64,000 bases of DNA from Betaproteobacteria bacterium (GCA_016194905.1 JACQAP010000026.1:28418-92417); one strand, 5' to 3'; counted from the first letter of the stretch, positions 34,411 through 59,059 are shown. Numbers and translations are program-made. Notes: generated by a model not told the origin, from the sequence alone.

Positions 34411-34453
34411 CGAGGTTGACGCGGGGCACGCACCGACGGAAAACGAAACGAGT

Positions 34454-35047
34454 TCATTTGACCGGACGGACCCGCTCTTCCGGGCCGAACCAGGCCACCT
34501 CGAGGCATTCCCGCAGACTCATCCGCGCACGGTAAAGAATCACCCAGCAATTGGTCGACGATATCCCCAGTTCCTGACAGATATCGCCCGTGTCCATGCC
34601 CATGAATTCGCGCATTGCAAATACGCGCGCCGTCTGCGCCGGCAACTGGGTGTTGCAGCGTTCGAACACTTCCCAGAAGCGCTTCTGCTCGAAACAGCGC
34701 TCGGGATCTTCCCACGTCGGCGGAAAGGTGTGCCAGTGGTCGGTGCGGGCCTGGTCGAAGAACTGGTCGGCGAACTCGCGTTCGTCTTCGCCGTCGGGCG
34801 CATCCGGTACCTGCGTCTCCCGCGACTGCTTGCGGAACAGATCGGTGATCTTGTGCTTCAGGATGCCGGTCAACCAGGTTTTGACCGAGGAGCGTCCGGC
34901 GTAACGATCGCCGCCTTCGATGGCGGCGAGCAGCGTTTCCTGCACGATATCCTCGGCGCGGTTGGCGTCCCGCACCTGCAGCAGGGCATAGCGGTAGAGA
35001 TAGGCGCGGTGTTCCTGGAGTTCACCGGGCCCGGTGCGTTCGGCCAT
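34454..35047 (-). CDS. ECF-type sigma-70 family RNA polymerase sigma factor
   Basis: 197 aa from ATG 35047; the track start at 35104 is a TTG. Region 2 reads YLYRYALLQVRDANRAEDIVQETLL. Region 4 reads RVFAMREFMGMDTGDICQELGISSTNCWVILYRARMSL. Confidence 0.85.
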   Translation of the reverse strand: MAERTGPGELQEHRAYLYRYALLQVRDANRAEDIVQETLLAAIEGGDRYAGRSSVKTWLTGILKHKITDLFRKQSRETQVPDAPDGEDEREFADQFFDQARTDHWHTFPPTWEDPERCFEQKRFWEVFERCNTQLPAQTARVFAMREFMGMDTGDICQELGISSTNCWVILYRARMSLRECLEVAWFGPEERVRPVK

Positions 35048-35136
35048 CTGAGATCCACTGGACTGGGAGGTCTTGAATCTAGTGATTTTGTCCCAAGAAC
35101 TCAAGTCTGGCGACCGACAGAGGCGTAAATGACGCT

Positions 35137-37073: not shown

Positions 37074-38228
37074 TTACGGGGTCCCGGCGGCCGTCGGAAA
37101 ACCGACGCGGCGCTCGCGCCCCAGCCATTGCCTCTCCATCTCCACCGATGCGCGTACCGCAAACAGCTTGAGAATGGCATGGTGCGGCAGCACCGGCTGC
37201 ATTTCGACGCGACTCTTGCAGGCGATGTGGCCAATGACCCTGCCTTTGGTATCCAGGCAGGGCAGGCCTAGATATCCCTCGGTGCCGTAGCGGCGTTCCT
37301 CCGGCCAGCGAGCGGTTGCGTGACGGGGCACGAATACGCTTCGCCCGCTCTGGATGACTTCCTGGCAGGGCGTGTTCGCCAGATCGAATTCCTCGCAGGC
37401 GGCGAATTTTCCCTCAATCCAGAAGGCGAGCATGCGCAACCTGTTCGTGGGGTAGTTGCTGCACTCGGTCAGAAAGGCTTCTTTCACGCCGATGAGATCG
37501 GCGAGTTTTCCGACCAGCGCCTGATAACACGCCTGCCCGGAAAGGTCGGCCAGCCCGTCGGCAACCTCCAGCAACACCTGCTGTACCTGGTGGCGCGACG
37601 CAATATCCGTGGTCAGGCCCAGCATGCGGTAAGGCGTGCCATTGGCATGGCGCACGGCCTGGGCGCGCACCAATACCCAGCGATACCGGCCGTCGCGATG
37701 GCGCAGACGGTGCTCGTTCTCGAAACGAACGCTGTGGCCCTGCAGATGCGCATCAACACCAGCCAGGGCGCGCTCGCGGTCCTCGGGATGAATGCGCGAA
37801 TGCCACTCGTCAATCCCGCCGCCTATCTCACATCCTTCATTGCCGAGCATGCTTTTCCATCGCGGCGAATAAAATACCGCGCCGGTTTTCAGGTTCCATT
37901 CCCACATGCCGTCGTTCCCGCCGCTTACGGCGAGGGCATAACGTTCCTCGGTTTCGCGCAGGTTCTCATTCAGCCGCCGGCGGCGGCTGACTTCTTCGGC
38001 GACACGGTCCTGCAAGCGGCCCGCCGCTGCATGCAGATCGTCCAGTCCACCGCGAATGGTCGCCAAAGCGTCGCCGCGCAACAGCGGAACGAGCCCGGCC
38101 GCCGCAACATAGTGGCTTGACTGGGCCGCCAATCGCCCGAGCCGCAATCGCAATATCAGATTAAACGCCAGCGTCAGCGACAATACGCTGACGCTGGCAA
38201 TGGCCGCTGTCACCCAGGCGAAACTCAT
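37074..38228 (-). CDS. Membrane-anchored PAS + GAF-like sensor protein without a recognisable output domain (paralogue 2)
   Basis: 384 aa from ATG 38228, which overlaps the histidine-kinase stop (ATGA). It is colinear with paralogue 1: ERYALAVSGGNDGMWEWNLKTG.VFYSPRWKSMLG, RHRDGRYRW, GYLGLPCLDTKGRVIGHIAC. Confidence 0.75.
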   Translation of the reverse strand: MSFAWVTAAIASVSVLSLTLAFNLILRLRLGRLAAQSSHYVAAAGLVPLLRGDALATIRGGLDDLHAAAGRLQDRVAEEVSRRRRLNENLRETEERYALAVSGGNDGMWEWNLKTGAVFYSPRWKSMLGNEGCEIGGGIDEWHSRIHPEDRERALAGVDAHLQGHSVRFENEHRLRHRDGRYRWVLVRAQAVRHANGTPYRMLGLTTDIASRHQVQQVLLEVADGLADLSGQACYQALVGKLADLIGVKEAFLTECSNYPTNRLRMLAFWIEGKFAACEEFDLANTPCQEVIQSGRSVFVPRHATARWPEERRYGTEGYLGLPCLDTKGRVIGHIACKSRVEMQPVLPHHAILKLFAVRASVEMERQWLGRERRVGFPTAAGTP

Positions 38229-39724
38229 GCCGCGCACTCGAGCGAACCGGACTGCGCCACGGGCAGCGTGAAGCGGAACTCGGTGCCGACTCCCGGGCGG
38301 CTGGCAACATCGATGCGGCTCTCATGCAGTTCGAGAATGCTCCTGGAGATGGCCAGACCCAGACCGGCATGCTCGCCGCGCGCGCGCTGATCGTCGTTGA
38401 CACGGTAAAAGCGATCGAAGATGTGCGGAATTTCCTCTTCAGGGATGCCGCAGCCCGAATCCGCGACTGCGACGACGGCGTGTTGGACATTCGATTTCAG
38501 ATCCAGGCTTACGCTGCCGCCGGCACTGGTATGCGCAATCGCGTTTCCGATCAGGTTTTCCAGCACACGTTCGATCAGGCCGATATCGGCGCACACGAAC
38601 GGCGGATTCCTCGGCAAGTTGACCGCCAGCTTTATTTGCTTCTGGTCCGCCCGGAGCTGGAATTTTTGCATGACATCCTGCATCAGTTCCGCGACGGGGA
38701 ATGCTTCGCGTGACAACTTGACCTCGCGCGCATCGAGCTTGGCAAGTTCGATCAGGTCGCCGATGAGCTTGGCGAGACGCTCGCCGCTGCGCGAAGCGAC
38801 AAGCAGATAGTGACGACGCTCCTCGTCGCTCAGGCTGCCGTCCTTGAGCAACAAGGTGTCCACATATCCCTGCAGCGACGCCAACGGCGTTTTCAGATCA
38901 TGGGATACGTTGGCGACCAGCTCGCGGCGCAGCACATCGTTGTGCGTGAGTTCGCGCACCTGGTCGACCATGCGGATCGACATCTCGCGAAAGGTGCCGG
39001 CCAGCCGGTCGATCTCGTCGGAGTTTTGCCCGGCGGCGGGTAGTTCGGCAACCGGCGCGGTTGAAAATTCGCCGCGCTGGAAATTCGCCATGACCTCGGC
39101 CAGGTGTTCCAGCCGGCGGGTCATGAATGCGAATATCAACATGCCGGTGAGCACGGCAAACAGGACGCCGACCGCGACTTCGCCCACCGTTACCCGCAGG
39201 ATGTAGCTACCGGCCAGGAGGCTGCCGATGCTGTCCTGTTCTTCGTTCGCAAGGATGACGTAGAGAAATCCACGACCGTCGTTTGGCCCCGGTATCGCCG
39301 CTGCCGAGAAAATCTTCCAGGTGCCGGGGTTGCGTGGATCGTTGCCCAGAATCGGCAGTCGGGCGTTGCCGGAGAGGAACCGACGGATGGGATCGAGTGC
39401 GACCTGCGCGAGCTTTACCTTGCCCGGTGCCGCCGAGTATTCGACCACGCGTCCTTCATTGTCCAGCAAATAGATCTCGATCGATGGATTGATCGCCATC
39501 TGCATGTCGAACAGGGATTTCAGGCGCGCCGAGTCGTAGCCTTCTGGCGTGATGAGCCGGTTCTGTTCGAGCAGATGATGCGCCAGTTTCTGGTTCAGCT
39601 TCTGGGTCGCCTCCTGGTTGTAGGCGACGAAGAAATGCAGAGTCGCCAGCACGAGCGCCGTGCCGACTGCGAGAAAAAGCAGCAGCAGGACGCCGGCAAG
39701 CTTGCTGTAAAGAGTGCGGAACAT
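38225..39724 (-). CDS. Sensor histidine kinase (periplasmic sensor domain, HAMP, HisKA, HATPase_c)
   Basis: 499 aa with two TM segments flanking a loop of about 150 aa. The H-box is VSHDLKTPLASLQGY, the N-box is LENLIGNAI, and the G-boxes are DSGCGI and GLGLAI. Confidence 0.9.
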   Translation of the reverse strand: MFRTLYSKLAGVLLLLFLAVGTALVLATLHFFVAYNQEATQKLNQKLAHHLLEQNRLITPEGYDSARLKSLFDMQMAINPSIEIYLLDNEGRVVEYSAAPGKVKLAQVALDPIRRFLSGNARLPILGNDPRNPGTWKIFSAAAIPGPNDGRGFLYVILANEEQDSIGSLLAGSYILRVTVGEVAVGVLFAVLTGMLIFAFMTRRLEHLAEVMANFQRGEFSTAPVAELPAAGQNSDEIDRLAGTFREMSIRMVDQVRELTHNDVLRRELVANVSHDLKTPLASLQGYVDTLLLKDGSLSDEERRHYLLVASRSGERLAKLIGDLIELAKLDAREVKLSREAFPVAELMQDVMQKFQLRADQKQIKLAVNLPRNPPFVCADIGLIERVLENLIGNAIAHTSAGGSVSLDLKSNVQHAVVAVADSGCGIPEEEIPHIFDRFYRVNDDQRARGEHAGLGLAISRSILELHESRIDVASRPGVGTEFRFTLPVAQSGSLECAA

Positions 39725-39749
39725 CAGCGAAGCGGTAAATCGTGAACAG

Positions 39750-40454
39750 TCACTGACGTTCAGCGAACTTGTAGCCCACTCCCCATACCGTCTGGATATA
39801 TTCGGGGTTCTGCGGGTCGCGTTCGATCTTGGCGCGCAAGCGGTTGATGTGCGAATTCACCGTGTGTTCATACCCACTGTGCTGGTATCCCCACACCTGG
39901 TCGAGCAATTGGTCGCGGGTGTACACCCGCCCCGGATGGCGGGCGAAATGCACGAGCAGGTCGAATTCGCGCGCAGTCAGCGTCACCGGTTTGCCGTCGA
40001 GCGCGACGCAGTGGCGCTCGAGATCCAGCGAGAGCGCTCCGGCACGGACCATGTTGCCCGCCTCTGCGATTCCGGCATTGGGGACTGCGCGCATGCGCCG
40101 CAGGATCGCTTTGACCCGTGCGGTGAGTTCGAGCACCGAAAACGGCTTGGTCAGGTAATCGTCGGCGCCCATTTCCAGACCCAGCACGCGGTCCAGTTCT
40201 GAAGATTTCGACGTCAGCATCAGGATCGGGGTGTAGGTACCCCGCCCACGCAACCGCCTGCAAACCTCCAGGCCGTCCAGGCCCGGCAGCTTGAGATCGA
40301 GGATGATCAGGTCGTAGTCCTTCGCTTCCGCTTCGGCCAGGCCGACGATGCCGTCGGCGGCGAGCTTTACCTGGCAGGGAAGGTCCTGCAAATGCAGCCT
40401 GACCAACTGGGAAATGTCTTGATCGTCTTCGATCACCAGTACGCTGTGCGTCAT
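39750..40454 (-). CDS. OmpR/PhoB-family response regulator (REC + winged-helix)
   Basis: 234 aa from ATG 40454. The REC domain shows VLVIEDD...DLIILDLKLPGLDG...PILMLTSK. The winged helix shows LTAREFDLLVHFARHPGRVYTRDQLLD.VWG...RTV..HI.RLR.KIE. Confidence 0.9.
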   Translation of the reverse strand: MTHSVLVIEDDQDISQLVRLHLQDLPCQVKLAADGIVGLAEAEAKDYDLIILDLKLPGLDGLEVCRRLRGRGTYTPILMLTSKSSELDRVLGLEMGADDYLTKPFSVLELTARVKAILRRMRAVPNAGIAEAGNMVRAGALSLDLERHCVALDGKPVTLTAREFDLLVHFARHPGRVYTRDQLLDQVWGYQHSGYEHTVNSHINRLRAKIERDPQNPEYIQTVWGVGYKFAERQ

Positions 40455-40539
40455 GTCCCCCGCGCTTTCATTGTATTGGTCCGGTTCGCCGTTTTGCCGG
40501 CTTTGCCTGATTGGTAGAAGCAAGCCCGGATTCCTTACA

Positions 40540-42747
40540 TTACATCGCCGCCGTTTCCAGCCGCGGCCGAGCGGGTGAGGTCGGGGCGGCCGCGATCAGC
40601 GGCGCGCCGGTGATCAGGCGCGTGCCGCTACGCAGGGTCAGATAGGCCCAGAACCAGTCGAACATCACCGACATCCGGTTGCGCACGCCTACCAGGAAGC
40701 CGACGTGCACCATGCCCCAGAGCCACCAGGCCCCGGCTCCGGACAAACGTACCGAACCGAAGTCGGCTACCGCCGCTTTGCGGCCGATGGTGGCCAGGCT
40801 GCCGAGATGGCGATAGCGGAAAGGTCGTGGCGGCGTTCGCCCGGCAATTCGCGAGCGGATTACCGATGCAACATACAAGCCGCCCTGCTTGGCGGCCGGC
40901 GCCAATCCAGGCACGGGTTGGCCATTCCACGCGGTCGAGTACGCCGTGTCACCGATGGCGAAGACTTCCGGCAGTCCGGTCACCGACAGGTCCGCGCCGA
41001 CCTTGATCCGGCCGGCGTTGTCGGCTTCCGTGCCCAGCCATGTTGCCGCGGGCGAGGCGACCACACCTGCCGCCCACAATACGGTGCGTGCGGCGACACG
41101 CTTGCTGTTCACAGTCACACCCAGCTCGTCTATGGTTTCCACCCGGCTGCCGGTCTGGACCTCAACGCCCAGATTCTCCAGCGAGCGTTTTGCATTCTCG
41201 GAAAGAGCTTGCGGAAATGTGGGCAGTATTCGCGGCGCCGCCTGCACCAGCACTACGCGCGCCGCCGCCGGGTCAAAGCGACGAAAGTCCTTGTCCATGC
41301 CGAAGCGCGCGAGTTCCGAAATTGCTCCGGCCAGTTCAACGCCGGTCGGTCCGCCGCCGACGATGAGAAACGTCAGCAAGGCACGGCGTTCCGATTCGTC
41401 TTCGCAGGCCTCCGCGCGCTCGAACGCGGTGAGCACACGCCTGCGTATGTCGGTTGCGTCTTCGATGCGCTTGAGCCCGGGCGCATGCGCCGCCCAGTCA
41501 TCACGGCCGAAATAACTATGCGAGGCACCGGTGCCCAGCACCAGGAAGTCGTAAGCAATCTGCAGATCACCGACCATGACCTTGCGCGCCGCGGTATCCA
41601 CGGCAGTCACCGTTCCGAGCAGCACCCGGGCGTTGAACTGCTCGCGGAACAATCCGCGCACTGGCGAGGCGATATCACCCGGCGCCAGACTTGCCGTGGC
41701 CACCTGGTACAACAGCGGCTGGAACAGGTGATAGTTGTTGCGGTCGATGAGCGTGACTTGCACCCTTGCCTGGCGCAGCGCCTGCGCGCACGCGAGCCCG
41801 CCGAAACCAGCGCCGACGATGACCACGCGCGGCAAGCCTTCGATGGAGAAGGCAGGCTTGCCGGCGAGTTGCGGGAACACGCCGCGCAGGCGCCTGTGGA
41901 GAAGGGCGTCCAGCGAAAGCGGCCCTGCGCCGAAAGCGAGGAACAGGCCGAGCGCCATTGCCCAACGCCAGTCCGGCCCAAGGCTCGGGTCCATCACGGT
42001 CAGTGCGATGGCCGCCGCAGCCAGCGCGATGGCGGTGAAACGGGTCGCGAAGCCGGTTGCCAGCAGCAATGCACAGGCAACTGCAATGCCTCTCGGCAGT
42101 TGCGGCGCGCTGGCAATCGGCAGCCAGTCCGCAACGGCAATGCCGGCGGCGGGCGATGCGTGGGCGGCAACGACAAGCGCCATGGCCAGCCAGGCTCGCA
42201 GCACCAGCTGATAGACGGGAAAGATGCGCCGCGTGATCCAGTCGAAAATCCGCACGATTCCCGCAGCGAACGGAATCGCGGTGTCGCCCGTCCCGCGCTT
42301 GAGCAGATGATCGAACGACAGCGGCCCGGCGCCGCGCAGCATGATCCACGCCAGCGATGCGGCCCACAACAATTGCGTGTCGAGCGCGCGGTAGCTGAAC
42401 TGGATCACGAGCGCCAGGGCCAGCATCGGAGCCGCCGCCAGGCGAGTCGCGAGTCCCGCCGCCAGCAACACCGAGCCCGCGAGTTCGACGACGACGCCGA
42501 AGACCGCAGCGGCTACGGGATCCAGCCATGAAACCGGATATTCGTTGGCCGACAGGTAGAGCGCAGTTTCCCAGCCGGTGATTTTCAGCAGGCCCGAAAC
42601 GAAGAATGCTTCCGCCACCCACAGCCGGATCGCGAGATCGAGCAGCGGACCGAACGAACGCTCGAGCGCGCGGAACGCGTCCGCGAATGCGGACATGAGA
42701 TTGCCGATCTGCGTGGAATGGACGCTTGCCGCTGCGCGTTTCATCAT
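40540..42747 (-). CDS. Fusion protein: two DoxX-like membrane domains + type II NADH:quinone oxidoreductase (NDH-2)
   Basis: About 735 aa; the start is ATG 42747 or 42744, behind AGGAG. Residues about 30-150 (LLDLAIRLWVAEAFFVSGLLKITGWETALYLSANEYP...GAGPLSFDHLLKR) are clearly paralogous to the stand-alone DoxX at 51953..52432. A second DoxX-like repeat follows (...GAGPLSLDALLHRRL). After that comes the NDH-2 part: RVVIVGAGFGGL..., FLIVGGGPTGVELAG, FAIGD. Confidence 0.85.
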   Translation of the reverse strand: MMKRAAASVHSTQIGNLMSAFADAFRALERSFGPLLDLAIRLWVAEAFFVSGLLKITGWETALYLSANEYPVSWLDPVAAAVFGVVVELAGSVLLAAGLATRLAAAPMLALALVIQFSYRALDTQLLWAASLAWIMLRGAGPLSFDHLLKRGTGDTAIPFAAGIVRIFDWITRRIFPVYQLVLRAWLAMALVVAAHASPAAGIAVADWLPIASAPQLPRGIAVACALLLATGFATRFTAIALAAAAIALTVMDPSLGPDWRWAMALGLFLAFGAGPLSLDALLHRRLRGVFPQLAGKPAFSIEGLPRVVIVGAGFGGLACAQALRQARVQVTLIDRNNYHLFQPLLYQVATASLAPGDIASPVRGLFREQFNARVLLGTVTAVDTAARKVMVGDLQIAYDFLVLGTGASHSYFGRDDWAAHAPGLKRIEDATDIRRRVLTAFERAEACEDESERRALLTFLIVGGGPTGVELAGAISELARFGMDKDFRRFDPAAARVVLVQAAPRILPTFPQALSENAKRSLENLGVEVQTGSRVETIDELGVTVNSKRVAARTVLWAAGVVASPAATWLGTEADNAGRIKVGADLSVTGLPEVFAIGDTAYSTAWNGQPVPGLAPAAKQGGLYVASVIRSRIAGRTPPRPFRYRHLGSLATIGRKAAVADFGSVRLSGAGAWWLWGMVHVGFLVGVRNRMSVMFDWFWAYLTLRSGTRLITGAPLIAAAPTSPARPRLETAAM

Positions 42748-42775
42748 GACTCCTGGATCTGCCGGCATGCCGCGT

Positions 42776-48534: not shown

Positions 48535-50025
48535 TCAGGCGACGGATTCCGCCGCGTGCATCTCGTCGCGCGTGATGGCACGCGTTTCGCCAAGTCGCTG
48601 CGCCGCGCGCAAAGCCCAGGCGTAGATGGTGAGTGCCGGATTGACCCGGCTCGAGCGCGGCAGGATGCTGCCGTCGACCACATAGAGATTCGCCATGCCG
48701 TGAACCTTGCCGACGGCGTCTACCACCGAGGTTTGCGGACTGTGGCCGGCGATGAGTGTTCCGCAAGCGTGCGCCGTGCCGCTTAGCGGTATCGCCTTGG
48801 TGAGCGGGAAATAGCCGAGCCTAATGAGCTGCCGTTGCAGCGCGCGCACGAAGCGCCGGTGTTCGTCACGCGCGGAAGGCAGACGTTCGACATCGTAGTC
48901 GAGCCGCGGACTCACGCCGGGCTGCACCACGACGCGGTTATCGGGATGCGAACCGTCCTCGGTTTGCAAGAACAATCCGTAGACACGATTGCCGACGATG
49001 TCGCTCAGGCGTTTCGGTATGAAGCCGGGCATCTGTGCGGAGATGATATCGGCGGCGAGGCCGCCGCCCAGTGTCTGCAGGCTGCTGTGCGGAAAACGAT
49101 CCGAAATCAGCAGTGCTGTTTTGCACAGCACGTCGTGCACTTTGCGGTGCGATAGCGCCAGCATCGCGGTGAGCATGTGCGATTTGTAATTGCGCCCCAC
49201 CTGCCGGTAAGCCGGCAGACTGTGCGAGAGTCCGGCGGATTCCATGTAGGTCTGCAGAAGGCGGGGGCTGTGCAATGCGCCAGCGGCCAGCAGTACGGCG
49301 CTGGCCTCGAAGCGGCTGCCGTCATCGCAAACCACGCCGCTGATGCGAGTCGGTTCGCCGGCACCGGGGAGCAGGCTTGTCACCTGTCTGCCGATCAGAA
49401 TCTGCAGGTTGGACCGATCGCGCACGCGGTCCAGGAAACGGTTCTCGGCATCGGCTTTCAATCCGCGAACCGACGCATAGGCGTCGAAATGGGCTGCTTC
49501 GTAAGGATGGTTCAGGATGTCGGCGGACAGTCCCAGCGGGAGCGGCCGCATGCGCCAATGGGGGTCTTGCCTGTGCAGGCCGTCCGCCAGCTTGCGCATG
49601 TCCGCCTCCACCGGAAACTGGCGCACCCCGAGCAGGTTTTCCGCTTCCTCGTAGAACGGTTCAAGATCGTCATAGCCGATCGGCCAGCCGCGGCATTGGT
49701 GACTTGCGTCGACTTCGAATTCTTCGGGGGCAAAGCGCAGCAGCGCGGCTCCATACCATTTGGTCTTGCCGCCAAGGTTGAAGTGTTCTTCGGGTACGAC
49801 GGTGCGGCCGAATCTATCCAGCCAGGGTTCGCGCGCCAGAAATTTTCCGTGACGAATCACCTGGTACGCATCGAGCGTGCTGCCGTCCTTCGGCAGCGAC
49901 GGTCCGCGCTCGATCAGCAGCACGCGTTTGCCGGTCTGTGTCAGATGGTAAGCGGCGGCCGAACCGCCGGCGCCTGAACCGATGATGATCGCGTCGTATC
50001 TCATGGCTGGACCCGTGGCCCTCAT
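48535..50025 (-). CDS. GMC-family FAD-dependent oxidoreductase
   Basis: YDAIIIGSGAGGSAAAY is the FAD-binding motif. The GMC C-terminus reads ...GTAHACGT...VVDGSILP. Start ATG 50025 overlaps the upstream stop (ATGA); ATG 50004 is an alternative. Confidence 0.8.
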   Translation of the reverse strand: MRATGPAMRYDAIIIGSGAGGSAAAYHLTQTGKRVLLIERGPSLPKDGSTLDAYQVIRHGKFLAREPWLDRFGRTVVPEEHFNLGGKTKWYGAALLRFAPEEFEVDASHQCRGWPIGYDDLEPFYEEAENLLGVRQFPVEADMRKLADGLHRQDPHWRMRPLPLGLSADILNHPYEAAHFDAYASVRGLKADAENRFLDRVRDRSNLQILIGRQVTSLLPGAGEPTRISGVVCDDGSRFEASAVLLAAGALHSPRLLQTYMESAGLSHSLPAYRQVGRNYKSHMLTAMLALSHRKVHDVLCKTALLISDRFPHSSLQTLGGGLAADIISAQMPGFIPKRLSDIVGNRVYGLFLQTEDGSHPDNRVVVQPGVSPRLDYDVERLPSARDEHRRFVRALQRQLIRLGYFPLTKAIPLSGTAHACGTLIAGHSPQTSVVDAVGKVHGMANLYVVDGSILPRSSRVNPALTIYAWALRAAQRLGETRAITRDEMHAAESVA

Positions 50026-51074
50026 GGTTGAACCAGCAATACGGCGTGGCCGTCGGGATCGCGGACCATGAGTTGTCTGCGGTATGGCTGGTCTTTCACT
50101 TCCACGGCGCGAGGCGATATGAAGCGGACGTCCGCGTGCTGCAACTTGGCGACCAACTCGTCGAGGTCGTCCACCTCGATGACCGTCCGGGTGGCGACCA
50201 GATCGTTGACTCCGGCATCCGCGGGCGTCGAACGTCCGCCGCCGGGCGTGAGGTACTGCAGAAACTCCACACCGGGGCCGCTTGCGTCCCGCGGGCGCAA
50301 TCCCGTTACGCGTACTACCGCACCGAAGGCGTTATCGAGCTGCTCCTGGGTTTCGCCCGAGTTCAGGCTTGCGCCGACCACAACTAGGCCAAGCAAATCG
50401 CGGTAGAAAGCGAAACTGCGATCGGTACTGGAAACGGTTATGGCGGAGTGGTCGATCCCGAGAAACAGCGCGTCGTCGCGATGCCATCTGGCCGGGCCCT
50501 TGTCCGGCGGCAAATAGAGCAGCTCCAGCGGATGGCCGTCGAAGTCGCGGAACTTGAAAGCCTTGACGCCAGCCGCTGCCTTGTTCCACTCGGGTAGGGT
50601 CTGCGGGGCGCTGGAAATCGCCTGAATCGGAAAGCGCGAGACATGCTCATAGGCCTTCTGCATGTCCGATACCACGACCGCAAAATGCTGGAACCAGAGG
50701 TCGTTGGCGCGGCTGTCGACCGGGACCGGCTTGCCGGCGGGTCCGAGATACTGGTCGAGCTCGATCGTTTCATCGCCGAGCTGCAACGACGCCGTTCGCA
50801 CGCGGGTGCCGAAAACACCGGTGACATAGTCGTAGTCGCGATCCGCAGTCGTACGTTCGCCGGTCTTGCGGAATCCGAGCGCCTGCTCGAAAAACGCGAC
50901 CGAGCGGTCAAGATCGGAAACCGTCAGCACGAAGCCCTTCACTTCGCGGGCACCGGCAAAGGCGCTGCCGGCCAGCAGGATCAGCGACACTGCCGCGAGC
51001 AGCGCGAAAGTGTGCAGCCATTCGCGCCAGGCGCGCGATTGCTGCGCCTGTACCGTGGTTTGCGCGAGGCTCAT
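50022..51074 (-). CDS. Two-domain VOC (glyoxalase/bleomycin-resistance/dioxygenase) family protein with an N-terminal signal or anchor
   Basis: 350 aa from ATG 51074. A hydrophobic N-segment (FALLAAVSLILLAGSAFA) is followed by two VOC repeats (F.LTVSDLDRSV.FF...LGF; IDHSAITVS..DRS.AFY...LGL). Confidence 0.7.
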   Translation of the reverse strand: MSLAQTTVQAQQSRAWREWLHTFALLAAVSLILLAGSAFAGAREVKGFVLTVSDLDRSVAFFEQALGFRKTGERTTADRDYDYVTGVFGTRVRTASLQLGDETIELDQYLGPAGKPVPVDSRANDLWFQHFAVVVSDMQKAYEHVSRFPIQAISSAPQTLPEWNKAAAGVKAFKFRDFDGHPLELLYLPPDKGPARWHRDDALFLGIDHSAITVSSTDRSFAFYRDLLGLVVVGASLNSGETQEQLDNAFGAVVRVTGLRPRDASGPGVEFLQYLTPGGGRSTPADAGVNDLVATRTVIEVDDLDELVAKLQHADVRFISPRAVEVKDQPYRRQLMVRDPDGHAVLLVQP

Positions 51075-51076
51075 GA

Positions 51077-51916
51077 TCAGCCCCCCTCGCGGAATTCCGG
51101 ATACAGCGTCATGCCGCCATCGACGTACAGCGTCGCACCGTTGACGTAGTCCGACTGATCGGAGGCAAGCCATACCGCCGCGCGCGCGATGTCGCGTGTT
51201 TCGCCGACGCGGTAATAGGGAATCAGTTTGAGCAGCTCGGCTTCCGCCTGCGGCGTGGCCCAGGCTGCGGTGTTGATCGGGGTCTTGATGGCGCCCGGCG
51301 AAATGCCGTTGACGCGGATCTTGTGCATCGCCAATTCCTGCGCCATGGTCTTCATGAGCATCGACACGCCGCCCTTGGAGGCGGCGTAGTTGGCGTGGCC
51401 GGACCAGGGGATCACATCATGCACCGAGGACATGCAGATGATTTTGCCGGCGGCCTGCGAAATTTCCGCCACCACACCGCGGCGCAGAAATTCGCACACG
51501 GCTTCGCGGGCGCACAGGAACTGGCCGGTGAGGTTCACGGCAAGCACCAGTTCCCAGTCCTTGAGCGACATTTCGTGGATCTTCGCGTCGCGCTGCAGGC
51601 CGGCATTGTTGACCAGGATGTCGACGCTGCCCCAGGTGTTTATCACCTGGGCAAACATGGCCTTGACCTCTGCTTCGTTGCTTACGTCGGCGCGGATGGC
51701 GATGGCTTCGCCGCCAGCAGAGCGAATTTCGGAAACGATCTGCTGCGCGCGCTCTTCCCCGGCGACATAGTTGACGACGACCCGCGCGCCGGCTTCGGCG
51801 TAACCGCGGGCGACGCCCTCTCCGATACCGGAGTTGGCACCGGTGATCACGGCACGCTGTCCGTCGAGCAATCGCATCGAGATGGCGCGTTGTTCGCTGG
51901 CATTGATTGCGTTCAT
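51077..51916 (-). CDS. Short-chain dehydrogenase/reductase (glucose 1-dehydrogenase-like SDR)
   Basis: 279 aa with VITGANSGIGEG (TGxxxGxG), NNAG and S...YAASK. Confidence 0.85.
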   Translation of the reverse strand: MNAINASEQRAISMRLLDGQRAVITGANSGIGEGVARGYAEAGARVVVNYVAGEERAQQIVSEIRSAGGEAIAIRADVSNEAEVKAMFAQVINTWGSVDILVNNAGLQRDAKIHEMSLKDWELVLAVNLTGQFLCAREAVCEFLRRGVVAEISQAAGKIICMSSVHDVIPWSGHANYAASKGGVSMLMKTMAQELAMHKIRVNGISPGAIKTPINTAAWATPQAEAELLKLIPYYRVGETRDIARAAVWLASDQSDYVNGATLYVDGGMTLYPEFREGG

Positions 51917-51952
51917 GGCTGCATTCCTTCTGGTAGCGTGACGCCAGCCGGA

Positions 51953-52432
51953 TCAGAACAGGCGGCGGCGCAGAAAATGATCGACTGAAATTTTTCCGGG
52001 GCCGTGCAACAGCGGAATGAGCAGCAGGAGGCCCCAGTACTGGTGGTCCTTGAGGCCGACTTCCCCGAGATCCGGATACGAAACCACGGCGATGATGTTG
52101 AACACGAACAGCGCGGCGGCTGAAAGCCGGCCGCCGAGGCCGAGAACCAGAAAAACCGGCAGTACCAACTCGGCGGCGGTACCCATGTACGCGGCCAGTT
52201 GCGGCGGCAGCAACGGCACCGCGTATTCGTTCTCGAACAGGGCCAGCGTCGTGTCCCAGCTCAGGATCTTGGTCAGGCCGGACTGAAAGAACACCATGCC
52301 GACCCAGATGCGGATGGCGAGATCGAGCACCGGCGCAAGCCAGCCCTCGGCGATACGAACCGCATTCCTGGCGATTGCGGTCGCTGTGCCGATCGCATTC
52401 ACGCGCGCGCTTTGGTTCATGGTCAGTTCCAT
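51953..52432 (-). CDS. DoxX-family membrane protein (bufferin-operon type), locus B
   Basis: 159 aa from ATG 52432, with AAGGAGG 6 nt upstream. It reads LDLAIRIWVGMVFFQSGLTKILSW...GPGKISVDHFLRRR and has four hydrophobic segments. Confidence 0.85.
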   Translation of the reverse strand: MELTMNQSARVNAIGTATAIARNAVRIAEGWLAPVLDLAIRIWVGMVFFQSGLTKILSWDTTLALFENEYAVPLLPPQLAAYMGTAAELVLPVFLVLGLGGRLSAAALFVFNIIAVVSYPDLGEVGLKDHQYWGLLLLIPLLHGPGKISVDHFLRRRLF

Positions 52433-52456
52433 GTGTTGCCTCCTTTGCCCGGATAG

Positions 52457-52485
52457 TCCCTCTCCGCGTCGCCGCCGGAGAGGGA
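52457..52485. repeat. Third copy of the CCCTCTCC/GGAGAGGG hairpin, intercistronic between the DUF2282 precursor and DoxX
   Basis: tccctctcc-gcgtcgccgcc-ggagaggga forms a 9-bp stem. Its core is the same as the two hairpins in the 46.3-46.5 kb element. Confidence 0.6.
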
Positions 52486-52500
52486 TCGAAGCAGCGTTGT

Positions 52501-52791
52501 TTACTTGGCGCCGCCGGGCTTGGCCCAGGCGGCAGTGACGATGTGGCCGCCGGCGATGCGCTCGCAACTGCCCTTGGGGAGCGCGATCCAGGCTTCCGCC
52601 TCGTTGTCTGTCTTGATGCTGCCGGCACAGGCCGACTTGCTGGTGCCGCAATCGTTTTTGCCGGCCTTGACGATGCCCGCGCATTTTTCGGTGTCGCCCT
52701 TGGCCGCCATCGCCTGGCTGCCGGCCGCACTCAAACCGAGCGCAAGCAGGCTCGCAAAAGCGGTATTGATGATCCTGTTCGATGCATTCAT
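52501..52791 (-). CDS. DUF2282 4-Cys RiPP precursor (bufferin BufA1-like), locus B
   Basis: 96 aa: MNASNRIINTAFASLLALGLSAAGSQAMA|AKGDTEKCAGIVKAGKNDCGTSKSACAGSIKTDNEAEAWIALPKGSCERIAGGHIV... It has a Sec signal ending AMA and Cys spacing 10-6-19. GGAG is the RBS. Confidence 0.85.
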   Translation of the reverse strand: MNASNRIINTAFASLLALGLSAAGSQAMAAKGDTEKCAGIVKAGKNDCGTSKSACAGSIKTDNEAEAWIALPKGSCERIAGGHIVTAAWAKPGGAK

Positions 52792-52871
52792 GTTCTTGCT
52801 CCGTTCATTTGAGGGTTGGAAGGCCAGGGTGGCATCGGGCCACCTGGTGATTGCGAGTGTGTTCGCGAAAG

Positions 52872-52909
52872 ATCACGCACGTCTCACGCAAACCTAAACG
52901 TTCGGTCAC
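52872..52909 (-). promoter_or_regulatory. 11-bp-periodic direct repeats (GTGAT/GTGAG/GTGAC on the minus strand) upstream of the DUF2282 gene
   Basis: On the plus strand: ATCAC 52872-52876, CTCAC 52883-52887 and GTCAC 52905-52909. All three are in 11-bp phase. Both full sites read (A/C)TCACGCA. Confidence 0.45.
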
Positions 52910-53739
52910 GCAGCCGCCGCGAATGGGCGCTGCGAGTCGCCGTCCGCCGTCTCGTCGCTGCAGGACAGCGGCCAGTCGAAGCCGGCGAATGCGCCGCCGA
53001 ACACGTGGCGCTGCAGGAAGGCGGCGACATCGAAATCCGGCTGTACCGAAACTGAGTAGCGGAGCGCCTCGTCGAAATTTCTCCCGGCGGCGAACAGGCT
53101 GAACATGCAGAAGCCGCCGCGGTCGAGCGTTTCGATTGCGACTTCACGGCCGTGACGCCGGACCAGCAGGAACACGCCGCCTTCCGCGAGATCCACCGAA
53201 GCGTCATCCGGCGCATCCGGCTGGTTCACCTGCCAGATGCGATGGATGGGATAGGCAGAGACCAGCAGCCGGCAGGAAGGATGCAGATCGAAGGTCAGCA
53301 ATGTCTGGCGATCGGGCGGAACCGCGGCGAGATCGGTCGGCCGCAGGCTTTCGCGGTCGGTTGCGTGGAACGATTCCTCCACCAGCCATTCAAGGCGGGC
53401 CACATCGGCGAGGTATCGCGGTTCGCGCGCCGGCGGCCAGGTATCGAGAAAATCCGCGAAGGTTTCTCCGAAGCGGTTCAGGTCGCCGCTGGCGGAGGGA
53501 TGCACGCGCATGTAGCGGTCGGCGGCGCGGTCGAAGAAGCGCGCGCCGACCAGGCGTTCGATCACCGGATAGACGGCGCGCAATGTCTGGCGAAAATTCG
53601 ATATCACGTTGTTGCGGTAGACGCCGATGCGTTCGTGCGCCGGGATGGCGTTGTCGATCACGTGTGCGGTCGCGTAGTTGCCCGCCGGATCAAGCAGGGT
53701 GGCGACGAACTTCAGTTGCAGTTCACGCAGCGAGGGCAT
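52906..53739 (-). CDS. DUF2063 protein (BufC-like), locus B
   Basis: 277 aa from ATG 53739; the track ORF extends to 53913. It reads IGVYRNNVISNFRQTLRAVYPV...LADVARLEWLV and overlaps the DUF692 3' end by 17 nt. Confidence 0.85.
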   Translation of the reverse strand: MPSLRELQLKFVATLLDPAGNYATAHVIDNAIPAHERIGVYRNNVISNFRQTLRAVYPVIERLVGARFFDRAADRYMRVHPSASGDLNRFGETFADFLDTWPPAREPRYLADVARLEWLVEESFHATDRESLRPTDLAAVPPDRQTLLTFDLHPSCRLLVSAYPIHRIWQVNQPDAPDDASVDLAEGGVFLLVRRHGREVAIETLDRGGFCMFSLFAAGRNFDEALRYSVSVQPDFDVAAFLQRHVFGGAFAGFDWPLSCSDETADGDSQRPFAAAA

Positions 53740-54592
53740 GCCGGTTCTCCATGATGGTGTCGGCCAGGATTCTGTCGGCGGCGGCGGCTTCGTCGACAAG
53801 GACGGCGAGCGGCGGCAGGTCCGTGTCCCATTCGATGAGCGTCGGGACGCGCCCGAAACGCGCGACGGCTTCGCGGTACAGGGCCCACACCGGTTCGGCG
53901 ACGCGGGCGCCATGCGTGTCGATCAGGCAGCGCCCGTTGTGATCGTGGCCGGCAAGATGGATTTCCCGGACGTGCGCCGTCGGAATGCCGCGCAGATAAC
54001 GCGCTGCGTCGAAGCCGTGATTGACCGATGACACGTAGACATTGTTGACGTCGAGCAGGATGCCGCAGCCTGTGCGGCGCGCCACTTCCGCGACGAACTC
54101 CCATTCCGGCAGGTTCGACTCGGCGAATTGCAGGTAACTGGAAACGTTCTCGACCAGGATCTGACGGCCGAGAAATTCCTGGGCCTGATTGATATGACGG
54201 CATACCACTGCGAGCGCCTGCTCGCTATGGGGCAATGGCAGCAGGTCGTTGTAGAAGCGGCCGCCGACTGAACTCCACGACAGGTGCTCGGAAACCAGTG
54301 CCGGTTCGACGCGATCGATCAGGCGGGCCAGATTCGTCAGGTGCTCGCGGGACAGCGCATCGGTCGATCCCAGCGACAGGCCGACGCCGTGCAGGCTGAC
54401 GGGATAGTGCCGGCGCAGGCGATCGAGGAAGTACAGCGGCTGGCCGCCCTCGCAGAAATAGTTTTCGCTGTGGACTTCGAGCCAGCCGATGTCCGGCAAT
54501 TCATCCAGCAACTGCCGGTAGTGCGGTGGGCGCAGACCGATGCCTGCACGCGCCGGGATACCGTGTCCGTTCATCGATTCGCATGCGCCCAT
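53723..54592 (-). CDS. DUF692 / UPF0276 MNIO enzyme (BufB-like), locus B
   Basis: 289 aa with AGIGLR.PHY, WLEVHSENY, LHGVGLSLGS, VSEHLSW, ILVENVSSY, LLDVNNVYVSS.NHGFD and IHLAGH. ATG 54574 is an alternative start. Confidence 0.9.
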   Translation of the reverse strand: MGACESMNGHGIPARAGIGLRPPHYRQLLDELPDIGWLEVHSENYFCEGGQPLYFLDRLRRHYPVSLHGVGLSLGSTDALSREHLTNLARLIDRVEPALVSEHLSWSSVGGRFYNDLLPLPHSEQALAVVCRHINQAQEFLGRQILVENVSSYLQFAESNLPEWEFVAEVARRTGCGILLDVNNVYVSSVNHGFDAARYLRGIPTAHVREIHLAGHDHNGRCLIDTHGARVAEPVWALYREAVARFGRVPTLIEWDTDLPPLAVLVDEAAAADRILADTIMENRHALAA

Positions 54593-54593
54593 G

Positions 54594-54803
54594 TCACTCG
54601 CCTTGCAACGCGCCGATATCGACTGCGACCATGCCGGACAACAGCACCATCAGTTCGGTCTCGGATTCCTCACCTTCTTCCAGGCCTTCGCCCTGCTCGT
54701 AGAAGCTCATCAGCGACAGCAGCGCGTCGGCGGCGCGCGAGTGGCGCACGGCCGCAGCCGTGCCGACATTCATCGATAAGAGTGACATGGCGACGGTGTT
54801 CAT
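54594..54803 (-). CDS. Unassigned 69-aa acidic, Cys-free small protein, translationally coupled to the MNIO gene (candidate novel substrate or accessory protein)
   Basis: ATG 54803 has AAGGAG 6 nt upstream. Third codon positions are GC-rich. The stop TGA (54594-54596) lies 1 nt before the DUF692 ATG. Sequence: MNTVAMSLLSMNVGTAAAVRHSRAADALLSLMSFYEQGEGLEEGEESETELMVLLSGMVAVDIGALQGE. It has no signal peptide and no Cys, and I recognise no family. Confidence 0.65.
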   Translation of the reverse strand: MNTVAMSLLSMNVGTAAAVRHSRAADALLSLMSFYEQGEGLEEGEESETELMVLLSGMVAVDIGALQGE

Positions 54804-54898
54804 TCGATATCTCCTTGTGTTCTGGCCGGGCGGCAGGCCCTGTCTGTTTCTGCAGGCCCGATCGGCCTGATCAGATGGCGGCAGTATTGGCGGCGTTG

Positions 54899-54914
54899 AT
54901 CACGCAAAGATCAC
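54899..54914 (-). promoter_or_regulatory. GTGAT-N6-GTGAT direct repeat (11-bp period) upstream of the small-ORF/MNIO operon
   Basis: On the plus strand: ATCAC 54899-54903 and ATCAC 54910-54914 (ATCACGCAAAGATCACGG). The site lies about 96-111 nt upstream of ATG 54803. Confidence 0.45.
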
Positions 54915-55033
54915 GGAGAAGACAAGCTTTGGTCACGGCTGGCGGCGCGAAATGACCGATGGAAGTCTTTTGAGCGCAGGCTGTAAGGATGGGCTTGAGC
55001 GAACGACAGAGTTGCCCCATGCCGGTCGCCGGC

Positions 55034-55057
55034 AAAAAAAAGCCCGGCAAGCCGGGC
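55034..55057 (-). terminator. Rho-independent terminator downstream of the lactonase gene
   Basis: The minus strand reads gcccggc-tt-gccgggc followed by TTTTTTTT (plus-strand A8 at 55034-55041). Confidence 0.8.
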
Positions 55058-55093
55058 GCAAGGGAGGAGAGAAGCAATTCGCAGATATGCAAT

Positions 55094-56722
55094 CTAGGGC
55101 CGAATGCCCTGAACTTTGAGCGGCAGCCGGTATAGCGCCGACTGCGCGGTGAGATAGAGCGTGTTGCCATCGTCGCCCCACGCCATGTTGTGCGCATGCT
55201 TCGGCCCACGGATGGTACCGAGGTGTCGTCCATCGGGCGCAAGGATCCATAGTCCGCCGGGACCGGATACGTAGAGATGACCTTCTGCATCCACCTTGAT
55301 GCCGTCAAGCGCGTCTTCGCCAGGCGCGGCGGTCATGTCGAAGAACACCTCGCCAGGCGCCAGAGTGCCGTCGCGGTTTACCGGGTAACGCATCACGACT
55401 TTGTTTTTTTCATCCCAGTTGCCGATGTAGAGATGCTTCTCGTCGGGAGAGAAGGCGATGCCGTTGGGGCCGGTCAGATCGGCCGATAGCAGCGCAAGCA
55501 TGCCGTCCTTGATACGGTAGATACCGCTGTAGGGCAGTTCCTTGCGCGCATCGTCGAAGAACTTCGGCAGGCCGAATGGCGGATCGGTGAAGTACACAGC
55601 GCCGTCGGACTTGATTACCAGGTCGTTCGGACTGTTCAACCTTTTGCCCTGATAGTTGTCGGCGAGCACGGTGATCGTGCCGTCGCGCTCCAGGCGACTC
55701 ACCCGATGGTTACCGTGCTCATCGAAGGTAAGCCGTCCCTGCCTGTCCACCGTAAGACCGTTGGATCCCGGTTGACCGAATTCCGCTATGTCCGCACCTT
55801 CGTAGCCGCTTGGGGAACGGAATACCGACAAGGCGCCAGCGCGTGTGTATTTATATATGGTGTTGGCGTTCGGATCGGAAAACAGCAGGTAACCGCCGTC
55901 GCGTACCCATACCGGTCCTTCCGTGAACTGGAAGCCGTCGGCCAGCTTGAACAGCTTGGGATTCTGGCTGACGATGCGGTCGATCTCCGGATCCAGCCGT
56001 TCGACCTCGATGTTGACTTCGTGCGGAGGAATTGCCATCGGCCCGGTCGGGCCATTGTGAAACTCCAGCCGGGCGTGATGCAGGAAGATGAAGTTGGTCG
56101 GAGAACGCGAAATCGGGCCATTGATCCCGAACACAGCCAACTGGATTTGCTGGCCGGGTTTGACGTCGCGGCCGATGACGAGACGATTCTTCGCGTTCCA
56201 ACCTTTCACGACCGGCCCGCCGCTGTCGCCCATGGCGTAGGCAATCTCGCCGTCCACCCAGATCTCGGCGTAATCGTCCACCTTGGTTTCGAATACGACG
56301 GAGGCGCCGGTCGGATCGAACCGTCCGATGCGCGCGGGAACGGTGAGCCGGATCCGGTACCAGTTGAATGCGACATGGCCATGGCCACGCGGTCGTTTCA
56401 GGGTTTCCGGCGCGATGATTTCCCAGGCGCTGTCGTCGAAGTCAGCGCCGCCCGCTTTCGGCAGGTAGTCGTAGGTGGCAACCGGTTCGCCGGTGGGCTG
56501 ACCGTCCGCACCGGGGCCGATGAAGCGCGCTTCGACGATGCGGGTATCGCTGTAGCGCCACTCACCCTTGACCAATGCGGCCCCGGTGCTGGTTGCCAGG
56601 TCCACCACGGCGCGCGGATTGCCGGGAAAGATATCCGGGTCCGCTGTGCCCGGCGCCGGCATGGCGGCGCCGGCAACGAGGCCGAGGGCGGCCGCAAGCA
56701 GCAGTCGCGCAACGGAGATCAT
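55094..56722 (-). CDS. SMP-30/gluconolactonase/LRE-family beta-propeller protein with an N-terminal sugar-binding-like domain, secreted
   Basis: 542 aa with a signal peptide. The C-terminal half reads EGPVW...LLFSD...N.IY...NGLT.D..GRL...E...R...SPNDLV...DG..YFTDP, a typical SGL propeller. Confidence 0.8.
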   Translation of the reverse strand: MISVARLLLAAALGLVAGAAMPAPGTADPDIFPGNPRAVVDLATSTGAALVKGEWRYSDTRIVEARFIGPGADGQPTGEPVATYDYLPKAGGADFDDSAWEIIAPETLKRPRGHGHVAFNWYRIRLTVPARIGRFDPTGASVVFETKVDDYAEIWVDGEIAYAMGDSGGPVVKGWNAKNRLVIGRDVKPGQQIQLAVFGINGPISRSPTNFIFLHHARLEFHNGPTGPMAIPPHEVNIEVERLDPEIDRIVSQNPKLFKLADGFQFTEGPVWVRDGGYLLFSDPNANTIYKYTRAGALSVFRSPSGYEGADIAEFGQPGSNGLTVDRQGRLTFDEHGNHRVSRLERDGTITVLADNYQGKRLNSPNDLVIKSDGAVYFTDPPFGLPKFFDDARKELPYSGIYRIKDGMLALLSADLTGPNGIAFSPDEKHLYIGNWDEKNKVVMRYPVNRDGTLAPGEVFFDMTAAPGEDALDGIKVDAEGHLYVSGPGGLWILAPDGRHLGTIRGPKHAHNMAWGDDGNTLYLTAQSALYRLPLKVQGIRP

Positions 56723-57219
56723 CTGTTTTCTCCGGTCAGTACCTTGGCCGCCGCCATGGCTATTTCCTCATCTTGAGCCGCACTCGCCGCGCCACTCATA
56801 CCGATCGCGCCGACGGTCTGGCCGTCCACGACCAACGGGATGCCGCCCTGCAACGGGGTGAACAATGTGTCGGGCAATGCCACCATGGTGATGCGACCCT
56901 TGTTGACGATGTCTTCGAAAAATTTGGTCGGTTTGCGAAACAGAGCCGAAGTGCGCGCTTTGCCAAGGGAAATCGTGGACGCGGCCGGAAAGGTATTGTC
57001 CAGACGCGCGGTGAGCACGGCATGGCCGCCGTCATCGACAATCGCAATCGCGCCGCCGGGTGCATCGAGGCGTCTGGCTTCGGCGATGGCCGCCGCCATG
57101 ACTTTCTCCGCACCTTCCAGTGTCAGCGTTTTACGTTCGGTCAGTTGTTCTGCGTGCAGGTTCATCGCCGCTGCAAACAGGGATAACGCAGCAGCAACTC
57201 GCAAAATTGACATGTTCAT
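56719..57219 (-). CDS. GlcG/HbpS-family (DUF336) haem-binding-like protein, secreted
   Basis: 166 aa with a signal peptide, then ...AIAIVDDGGH......D......S...A..KA.T...F...T...GG.P....G...GAIG.SG. It overlaps the downstream gene by 4 nt (ATGA). Confidence 0.8.
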   Translation of the reverse strand: MNMSILRVAAALSLFAAAMNLHAEQLTERKTLTLEGAEKVMAAAIAEARRLDAPGGAIAIVDDGGHAVLTARLDNTFPAASTISLGKARTSALFRKPTKFFEDIVNKGRITMVALPDTLFTPLQGGIPLVVDGQTVGAIGMSGAASAAQDEEIAMAAAKVLTGENR

Positions 57220-57313
57220 GATGGCCTCGCGATTTCGGGCGCTGCCGGGGTGGCGCCCGTAAATTGGGGAACGAAGTCGGGACCGGAAGCTGCCCGGCCC
57301 CGAGGCTGTGGGC

Positions 57314-57613
57314 TCAGTTCTTGACGCCGGGAGTCGGATCGATGGCGGCGGTCAGATGCGCACCGGAAATCTTTTCGCAGGTGCCCTTCGGCACATAGAT
57401 CCACGCTTCCGGGTCGCGGTCGCTGGTGACATGGCCGTGACACTGGTTCTTGCTGGTGGCGCAGTCGTTCTTGCTGGCCTTGATGATGCCGGCGCACTTC
57501 TCTTCCTTGCTGTGGTCGTTGTCGGCGGCCATCGATTGGGAGCCGAAGGCCAGCGCGCCGGCCGCGAACAGGCTGGCGAAGGTGCTGCGGATGATGCGAT
57601 CAGAGGTTTTCAT
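57314..57613 (-). CDS. DUF2282 4-Cys RiPP precursor (BufA1-like), orphan copy
   Basis: 99 aa from ATG 57613, with AAGGAG 5 nt upstream: [29 protein letters not shown]|[58 protein letters not shown]... Its Cys spacing (10-6-19) matches 52501..52791. Confidence 0.85.
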
Positions 57614-57670
57614 TGTTGCTCCTTTGCAGTTGGTGAATGAACGGGGCGTTGCAGCGCTCAACCGGGTTGA

Positions 57671-59059
<1,389 letters not shown>

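Follow-up and report, generated by a model that had tools for sequence, protein, structure and literature searches.

What is the role of a small, acidic and cysteine-free protein whose gene stands at the head of a bufferin maturase unit? The question is raised by a 64-kb stretch of DNA from a Betaproteobacteria bacterium (GCA_016194905.1, JACQAP010000026.1:28418-92417; the whole stretch is called the window here), where a 69-codon open reading frame (ORF69; 54594..54803, minus strand, read 54803->54594) ends in TGA a single base before the ATG of a maturase gene of the MNIO (DUF692) type, as a first-pass annotation made from the DNA alone had observed. That annotation described a rearranged MNIO/DUF2063 locus in which ORF69 occupies the precursor slot, and offered three options for its product, namely a new substrate class, a leader-like or chaperone accessory, or a regulator. 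We argue that ORF69 is probably a helper or regulator and not a new enzyme substrate, and that the novelty lies in two additions to a bufferin cluster, a co-regulated small protein not described before and a promoter box that is likewise new. All genes of the locus read on the minus strand.

The first step is to ask whether ORF69 is a gene at all. The reading frame exists, its product matching the originally quoted sequence letter for letter, and it is preceded by the Shine-Dalgarno sequence AAGGAG (54811..54816), which had been correctly seen and lies 7 nt 5' of the ATG, not 6 nt as first counted; purine runs of the Shine-Dalgarno kind occur at a matching distance in homologous loci. The third codon positions are indeed GC-rich (G+C of 0.80, against 0.60 overall), and the product is, as annotated, free of Cys and acidic (11 D+E against 2 K+R, pI 4.1), with no export signal visible by eye. 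An identical protein is listed at NCBI as 'hypothetical protein HY067_17555' of a Betaproteobacteria metagenome-assembled genome (MAG). A word-indexed search gave 25 close homologues with 50-90% identity and lengths of 64-79 aa, sharing the invariant core ESETELMVLLSGMV, while a profile search of 1.84 billion representatives gave 65 clusters at E<=1e-3, nearly all of 57-80 aa, and a second profile search 182 clusters at 90% identity, among them 'hypothetical proteins' from strains in culture (Nitrosovibrio sp. Nv4 and Nv6, Nitrosospira sp. Nl5). Scanning metagenomes with the family alignment added 71 further loci, for an overall set of 61 distinct family proteins and 46 loci with informative flanks.

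Purifying selection, on which the first-pass annotation had made its proposal depend, is clear. Codon analysis of 12 orthologues gave a whole-gene dN/dS of 0.35-0.58, and in the window clade the core residues 44-62 have a pN of 0.06-0.09 against a pS of 0.5-0.8, Ser codons swapping between TCN and AGC and Leu codons varying freely. A pN so far below pS, together with this turnover of Ser and Leu codons, argues that selection acts on the protein and not on DNA or RNA, and recurrence under purifying selection in many independent contigs places the ORF beyond chance. The suspicion that it is spurious, or a purely cis-acting leader ORF that couples translation into bufB, is natural enough in a high-G+C genome full of long chance ORFs and with a stop codon 1 nt from the bufB start. 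Such a reading, which we regard as having a negligible chance of being correct, is contradicted by amino-acid-level selection with synonymous turnover, by the persistence of the family even at distances from bufB as long as 1.5 kb, by its persistence without a downstream gene where a ferritin-like neighbour is convergent, and by the lack of any Rfam match over 51900-58300. A regulatory arrest peptide or upstream open reading frame was likewise considered and rejected, many family members having no same-strand downstream gene.

Taken together, these patterns argue that ORF69 is a real, selected gene of an undescribed family of small acidic proteins of about 65 aa. The earlier statement that no described family matches it is borne out: neither ORF69 alone nor 53 family members found a match above noise in Pfam or NCBIfam, a sequence profile search of the PDB gave a chance match only (E 0.66), and a Foldseek search of the PDB with the AlphaFold2 model of ORF69 gave none (best E 7). 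The hypothesis of a decayed bufA1 copy was also discarded, hhalign assigning a probability of 0.1% to the alignment of the 53-member profile with 61 BufA1 sequences, with no PF10048 or NF050166 match. Members share a common layout: the N-terminus varies, and after it come an amphipathic helix, AL+SLMx(F)(Y/W)E, and an acidic loop, then the nearly invariant motif of 14 residues, ESE(T/V)(E/D)LM(V/I)xLSGMV, and finally a tail of 5-12 residues that again varies. Among 53 diverse members M52 and L55 are present in all 53, S56 and G57 in 52, M58 in 50, and E46 and E48 in 49; L31, L51, M32 and an aromatic residue at position 35, with S56, G57, M58, E46 and E48, are 89-98% conserved. AlphaFold2, run with 25 or 53 sequences, predicts a helix to residue 36, an acidic loop at 37-47, a short helix at 48-55/57 and a coil tail, at a mean pLDDT of 63-65.

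How, then, does the locus that houses this gene compare with known bufferin clusters? On all component tests (BufB, DUF2282 precursor, DUF2063, DoxX) it is a Buf1 bufferin cluster. The 289-aa MNIO encoded by bufB (53723..54592; PF05114, E 7e-112) is of the BufB type, with 398.2 bits against the NCBIfam equivalog NF050167 MNIO_BufB, the cut-off of which is 310. The gene overlaps bufC (52906..53739) by 17 nt, as had been noted, and bufC encodes a 277-aa DUF2063/HvfC-like partner (PF09836, E 3e-23) that reaches 62.7 bits with NF050145, under its cut-off of 142. In the window clade ORF69, bufB and bufC constitute one unit, joined by the 1-nt gap and then the 17-nt overlap. After bufC there follow a 114-nt spacer, the gene bufA1b for a 96-aa, four-Cys DUF2282 precursor (52501..52791; PF10048, E 4e-21), a hairpin (52458..52484; stems 52484-52476 and 52466-52458, CCCTCTCCG-N8-G-CGGAGAGGG) and the bufD-like doxX for a 159-aa protein (51953..52432; PF07681, E 2e-18), called at the same place in L001, one of the related loci to which we give L numbers; all these elements lie where the first-pass annotation had put them.

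On the other side of ORF69 there are four extra same-strand genes. Proceeding away from ORF69, these encode a 542-aa SMP-30/gluconolactonase-like (SGL) protein with a hydrophobic N-terminus (55094..56722; PF08450, E 2e-37), a 166-aa HbpS-like protein of the GlcG type (56719..57219; PF03928, E 8e-30), the 99-aa DUF2282 precursor BufA1a (57314..57613; PF10048, E 3e-21), and an 84-aa six-Cys precursor of the BufA2 type (57701..57955; NF050166 Cu_RiPP_BufA2, 79.9 bits, cut-off 60). The two DUF2282 precursors, both of them PF10048 matches, have four Cys and a hydrophobic N-terminus in their translations. Between the SGL gene and ORF69 is a strong intrinsic terminator (55034..55057; stem GCCCGG/CCGGGC at 55057-55042, then T8). 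ORF69 begins a new transcription unit, and the region accordingly reads as three units: bufA2-bufA1a-hbpS-sgl, then ORF69-bufB-bufC, and then bufA1b-doxX with downstream genes. The SGL gene is syntenic in the relatives L001, L003, L005, L006, L088, L107, L115 and L146, while a bufA2 gene at 57701-57955 is a property of the window clade only (L001, L005, L006). Downstream of doxX (48535-51916, minus strand) lie genes for a short-chain dehydrogenase, a double glyoxalase-domain protein, a GMC-type FAD oxidoreductase and a GDE-type glycosidase, a block whose synteny with the buf locus holds in every long relative (L003, L006, L007) and which may be part of the bufA1b-doxX unit.

The canonical order precursor-MNIO-DUF2063-DoxX is replaced here by ORF69-bufB-bufC-bufA1b-doxX, with bufA2 and bufA1a 2.5-3 kb upstream. 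To call the locus rearranged is accurate as regards gene order, but with BufA2 and a second BufA1 upstream its composition argues that it is expanded, not merely rearranged. Compared with the Buf1 cluster bufA1-bufB-bufC-bufD, also known as the 'gig' operon (Leprevost et al. 2024, PMC11626156), it contains the same four core components, whereas the order is bufB-bufC-bufA1-doxX, an extra bufA1 and a bufA2 lie upstream, the hbpS-like gene, sgl and ORF69 intervene between these upstream precursors and bufB, and an additional gene for a Cys-free small protein heads the maturase unit. One maturase locus of the Buf1 type thus has two precursor classes and three precursors (BufA2, BufA1a, BufA1b).

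Directly 5' of bufB, where ORF69 is found, a gene for BufA1 or BufA2 stands in most of the 78 loci used for comparison. The picture of ORF69 in a vacant precursor slot does not survive the presence of three canonical precursors, and is weakened by the locus L010, in which the same order occurs without ORF69; with the extra precursors in the locus, there is no gap that a Cys-free substrate would have to close. The corresponding proposal is that ORF69 is a Cys-free precursor of a ribosomally synthesised and post-translationally modified peptide (RiPP), the conserved two-thirds being the leader and the variable acidic tail being modified by BufB/BufC at a non-Cys residue. The gene does stand directly before the MNIO gene, with translational coupling in the window clade, and the division into a conserved N-terminal two-thirds and a short variable tail with a usually acidic end is what such a precursor might look like; moreover the published censuses of MNIO enzymes gathered only Cys-containing upstream proteins and would have missed such a class (PMC12452194).

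The enzyme itself speaks otherwise. With a score of equivalog grade for BufB nothing points to new chemistry, and the window MNIO reaches only 79.8 bits with the model for ApyH, the cut-off of which is 400, and falls far under the MbnB and ChrH cut-offs too. In the aminopyruvatide system ApyA/ApyHI (listed in PMC12452194) the MNIO acts on a C-terminal Asp, and ORF69 is similar to ApyA in being a Cys-free small peptide 5' of an MNIO gene with a usually acidic C-terminus. It differs in that its family lacks an invariant C-terminal Asp, the last position being E, D, A, V, K, G, Q or N. Among the 53 members the tail has no invariant residue, and Cys is absent from 42 of them, with no Cys column conserved; bufferin-like classes, by comparison, all have Cys motifs. 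ApyH clusters encode PME-type 2 partners (PMC12452194), whereas here the partner is DUF2063. No signal peptide is visible by eye, there is no transporter or protease nearby, and in 22 of the 46 informative loci the surrounding 2 kb are free of MNIO genes. Given the equivalog-grade BufB, the abundance of canonical substrates, the lack of an invariant tail residue and the frequent absence of an MNIO, the substrate class is the weakest of the three options originally offered, and we consider it very unlikely. Were it correct, an ordinary-looking bufferin MNIO would have a second chemistry on a non-Cys residue, and a cytoplasmic RiPP class would have been missed by surveys that select for Cys.

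If ORF69 is not a substrate, the question becomes how it is linked to the bufferin genes, and here the intergenic regions are informative. The repeat motif that had been reported in the 114-nt spacer is real, and the same element occurs also 5' of ORF69 and of bufA2. Searching the window with the pattern (C/G)GTGA-N6-(C/G)GTGA gave 6 occurrences where 0.59 were expected, a number reached in none of 100 shuffles, and five of the six are in three buf intergenic regions on the coding strand. The box 5' of ORF69 (54899..54937) has three CGTGAY units at 0, +22 and +33 nt and forms a block conserved in L001-L008; that in the bufC-bufA1b spacer (52873..52909) has the same 0/+22/+33 layout and is kept in L001, L003, L006, L007, L093, L103 and L106; and that 5' of bufA2 (58077..58114) has four (C/G)GTGA units with an exact 11-nt spacing. 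Ten nucleotides after the last CGTGAY preceding ORF69 is a -10-like hexamer AATACT (54883..54888), which is GATACT in relatives, where the sequence GATACTGC is conserved. The layout retained in relatives is CGTGAY-N5-CGTGAY, a gap of 9-10 nt and GATACT, situated 28-112 nt before the ORF69 start in clades ii-v. A longer upstream motif, GTGAYCAAAGYTTGT, proved specific to the window clade and was set aside, only the shorter CGTGAY repeat being of general occurrence.

Pho-box-type promoters are activated by response regulators of the OmpR/PhoB family, which bind direct repeats of 11-bp periodicity that replace the -35 element. The present arrangement corresponds in layout, with 11-bp direct repeats about 10 bp 5' of the -10 hexamer and neither a sigma-70 consensus promoter nor a -35 consensus in 51900-58300, although the CGTGAY repeat itself to our knowledge matches no known box; we take it to resemble the reverse complement of the CreB 'cre tag' TTCAC-N6-TTCAC. 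Bufferin control in Caulobacter is exerted by the SigF/NrsF pair, whereas here it is apparently exerted through a direct-repeat box. The SigF-type extracytoplasmic function (ECF) promoter consensus is GTAACC-N16-CGAA (PMC3511200), and GTGACC-N15-CGTGA resembles it; relatives, however, keep just the two proximal repeats and GATACT. Because it is two adjacent repeats with GATACT that are conserved, an activator box appears more likely than a SigF-type reading. A gene of the NrsF type was not seen, and the only ECF sigma factor of the window belongs to a separate, canonical Buf2 cluster (32155-35104, minus strand). This cluster comprises the ECF sigma factor (34454-35104, TIGR02943 family), a zf-HC2 anti-sigma factor (34219-34410), BufA2 (33850-34104, 78.7 bits), BufB (32946-33788, 392 bits) and an HvfC-like partner within 32155-33102, and it lacks the CGTGAY box.

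The distribution of the box extends the connection beyond the window. Of 55 family genes, 23 have it no more than 200 nt upstream, among them those of L092 and L116, which are without bufB. Where a spacer or an inserted major facilitator superfamily (MFS) gene intervenes between the ORF69 homologue and bufB, a separate box precedes bufB (L115, L118, L130, L140, L145), and in L115 boxes head three successive units, namely a gene for a 70-aa secreted protein, the ORF69 homologue and bufB. The box is absent from the Nitrosospira-type and 'MVSVSDPT' clades. Its occurrence before bufA2, ORF69 and bufA1b, as well as before homologues lacking bufB, suggests that ORF69 and the bufferin genes share a putative regulator. 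A candidate box-binding system is the pair of OmpR-family response regulator and histidine kinase encoded at 38225-40523 (the regulator at 39750-40523), 12-14 kb away. The pair is part of a stretch (38225-42768, minus strand) in which it follows a 742-aa fusion of an N-terminal DoxX domain with a pyridine-nucleotide-disulphide oxidoreductase of the NDH-2 type.

Such a promoter invites the thought that ORF69 is itself a feedback or connector regulator, produced within the regulon: by binding the protein that reads the box, or that protein's kinase, it would tune the response in the manner of the small connectors of two-component systems. The homologues of L092 and L116 keep their own box promoter without any buf gene, that of L115 is a unit separate from bufB, and ORF69 is promoter-proximal, small, acidic and partly disordered; the window, moreover, contains the response regulator and kinase just mentioned. 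We nevertheless consider this reading rather unlikely, as none of the loci examined has an adjacent regulator gene, two clades lack the box, and profile and fold searches revealed no likeness to a known connector or anti-sigma family.

Genomic context provides a further view of the family. When bufB was counted as linked if it lay downstream on the same strand within 2 kb, it was found in 24 of the 46 informative loci, with gaps of 2-1532 nt and in four family clades. Every context of the close homologues repeats the gene order of the window, and the order BufB-BufC-BufA1-DoxX is retained wherever the sequence is long enough, such that the expectation that homologues would recur immediately 5' of BufB genes elsewhere has been confirmed. 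Some clades have further genes for small secreted proteins, which separate the ORF69 homologue from bufB or adjoin them. One encodes the 70-aa protein of L115 (5482-5691, plus strand) behind its own CGTGAY box, and another a conserved 110-128-aa protein on the opposite strand in L130 (6399-6785, minus strand), L145 (738-1112, minus strand) and L092 (2388-2720, minus strand).

A second group of 14 loci forms a single clade, whose named members are Nitrosospira/Nitrosovibrio, and in these the ORF69 homologue and a ferritin-like gene are convergent without exception (Pfam Ferritin; L117, L119, L141, L149, L151, L157 and others). Beyond the ferritin-like gene, by eye, are a peroxiredoxin-like ORF and then an Nnr/YjeF-like ORF, and upstream are a LuxI-like ORF, also by eye, and a 160-aa protein without a Pfam domain. 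A 'pseudo-receiver' identity entertained for a protein next to these homologues was not borne out, as it has no Pfam domain. The remaining 8 loci have neither bufB nor the ferritin-like context, one clade of these being near ORFs that by eye resemble an RND pump, an NDH-2 and a PQQ dehydrogenase.

The recurrent neighbourhoods, by annotation or eye, are all related to metal or oxidative stress (bufferin, ferritin-like with peroxiredoxin-like, RND-pump-like), which could be explained if ORF69 handled metal, binding it via E46-x-E48-x-E/D50 and/or M32, Y/W35, M52 and M58, either as a Cu(I) buffer or for iron supply to, or protection of, the MNIO during copper stress. The candidate ligand residues are conserved, bufferins have their role under copper stress, and BufB is iron-dependent (PMC11626156). 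We hold this to be distinctly improbable: the Cys/His ligands usual for a cytoplasmic Cu(I) site are lacking, the conserved hydrophobic and Met positions would equally fit a helix-packing or docking face, and the ferritin-like synteny is convergent, confined to one clade and may reflect lineage inheritance.

Our tentative preference, a possibility to which we give more credence than to the rival readings while stopping short of calling it probable, is that ORF69 is a putative non-substrate cytoplasmic accessory, which docks via its invariant motif on the BufB-BufC maturase or on a regulator. A single regulator, probably of the OmpR/PhoB type, would control the expression of ORF69 along with that of the bufferin pathway, and the protein would act in the cytoplasm without being a substrate. 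The invariant motif, apparently conserved on all helical faces in the way of a bound peptide, would dock on a partner, and the moderate AlphaFold2 confidence fits folding on binding. The likeliest partner would be the BufB-BufC maturase, with ORF69 serving as a leader-like peptide in trans and modulating or assisting the maturation of the three Sec-targeted precursors. It would not be needed for the basic chemistry, because canonical BufB and BufC suffice elsewhere.

RiPP leader peptides bind partner domains of the RiPP recognition element type (the principle is given in PMC11626156), and ORF69 resembles them in having a short conserved linear motif within a small, poorly structured peptide and in being encoded beside an enzyme whose DUF2063 partner is described as a substrate-recognition protein; ORF69 would differ in being free-standing and without a modifiable core. 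In the case of bufferin precursors the leader or signal peptide is dispensable for modification (PMC11626156). The 'adjamnio' families (Antoine et al. 2025, PMC12452194) are small uncharacterised proteins that, like ORF69, were noticed by their position beside MNIO genes. As far as the text consulted describes them, the putative-precursor families have Cys motifs and another two resemble enzymes, whereas ORF69 is Cys-free and also occurs away from MNIO genes. In that survey upstream neighbours were collected only if they contained Cys, a selection by which the ORF69 family would be removed by design (PMC12452194).

Several observations weigh against an accessory role at the maturase. BufB1 and BufC1 alone are sufficient to modify BufA1, both in E. 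coli and in vitro (PMC11626156). The 22 informative loci without bufB within 2 kb, that is the 14 of the Nitrosospira/Nitrosovibrio type and the 8 others, place the family away from the maturase gene, and its function therefore cannot depend on an adjacent maturase. Conversely, a family member is present in only 1 of 78 species-representative BufB loci (L009, where BufA1 is again 3' of BufC), a figure that agrees with the MNIO landscape survey, in which extra conserved genes are found in bufferin clusters at very low frequency only (PMC12452194). In L010, from a Methylophilaceae MAG (JBJXDT010000086.1), the genes run BufA1-HbpS-HbpS-SGL-BufB-BufC-BufA1-DoxX with ORF69 absent and a gap of only 48 nt between SGL and BufB; this locus is a natural 'minus ORF69' comparison. 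Finally, in a rough neighbour-joining tree the BufB proteins associated with ORF69 form two groups, one of them sister to that of L010, and much of the synteny may on this account reflect vertical inheritance, not repeated selection.

What do these findings mean for the biology of bufferins? Bufferins are a large and recently recognised class of copper-binding ribosomal peptides, the core pathway of which had been held to need four genes only. To this pathway the lineage of the window adds a conserved, co-regulated small protein that heads the maturase unit, and two precursor classes in one locus. Surveys that retain just the Cys-containing neighbours of MNIO genes have a blind spot, as they cannot detect partners like ORF69, and the CGTGAY box offers a concrete handle for defining the regulon. 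Should ORF69 bind the maturase, bufferin systems would have their first accessory subunit, and with it a possible explanation of how a single enzyme pair can handle several precursors. If instead it binds a regulator or metal, bufferin production would be tied to a wider stress circuit, one that would also be present in ammonia oxidisers (Nitrosospira/Nitrosovibrio) without nearby bufferin genes.

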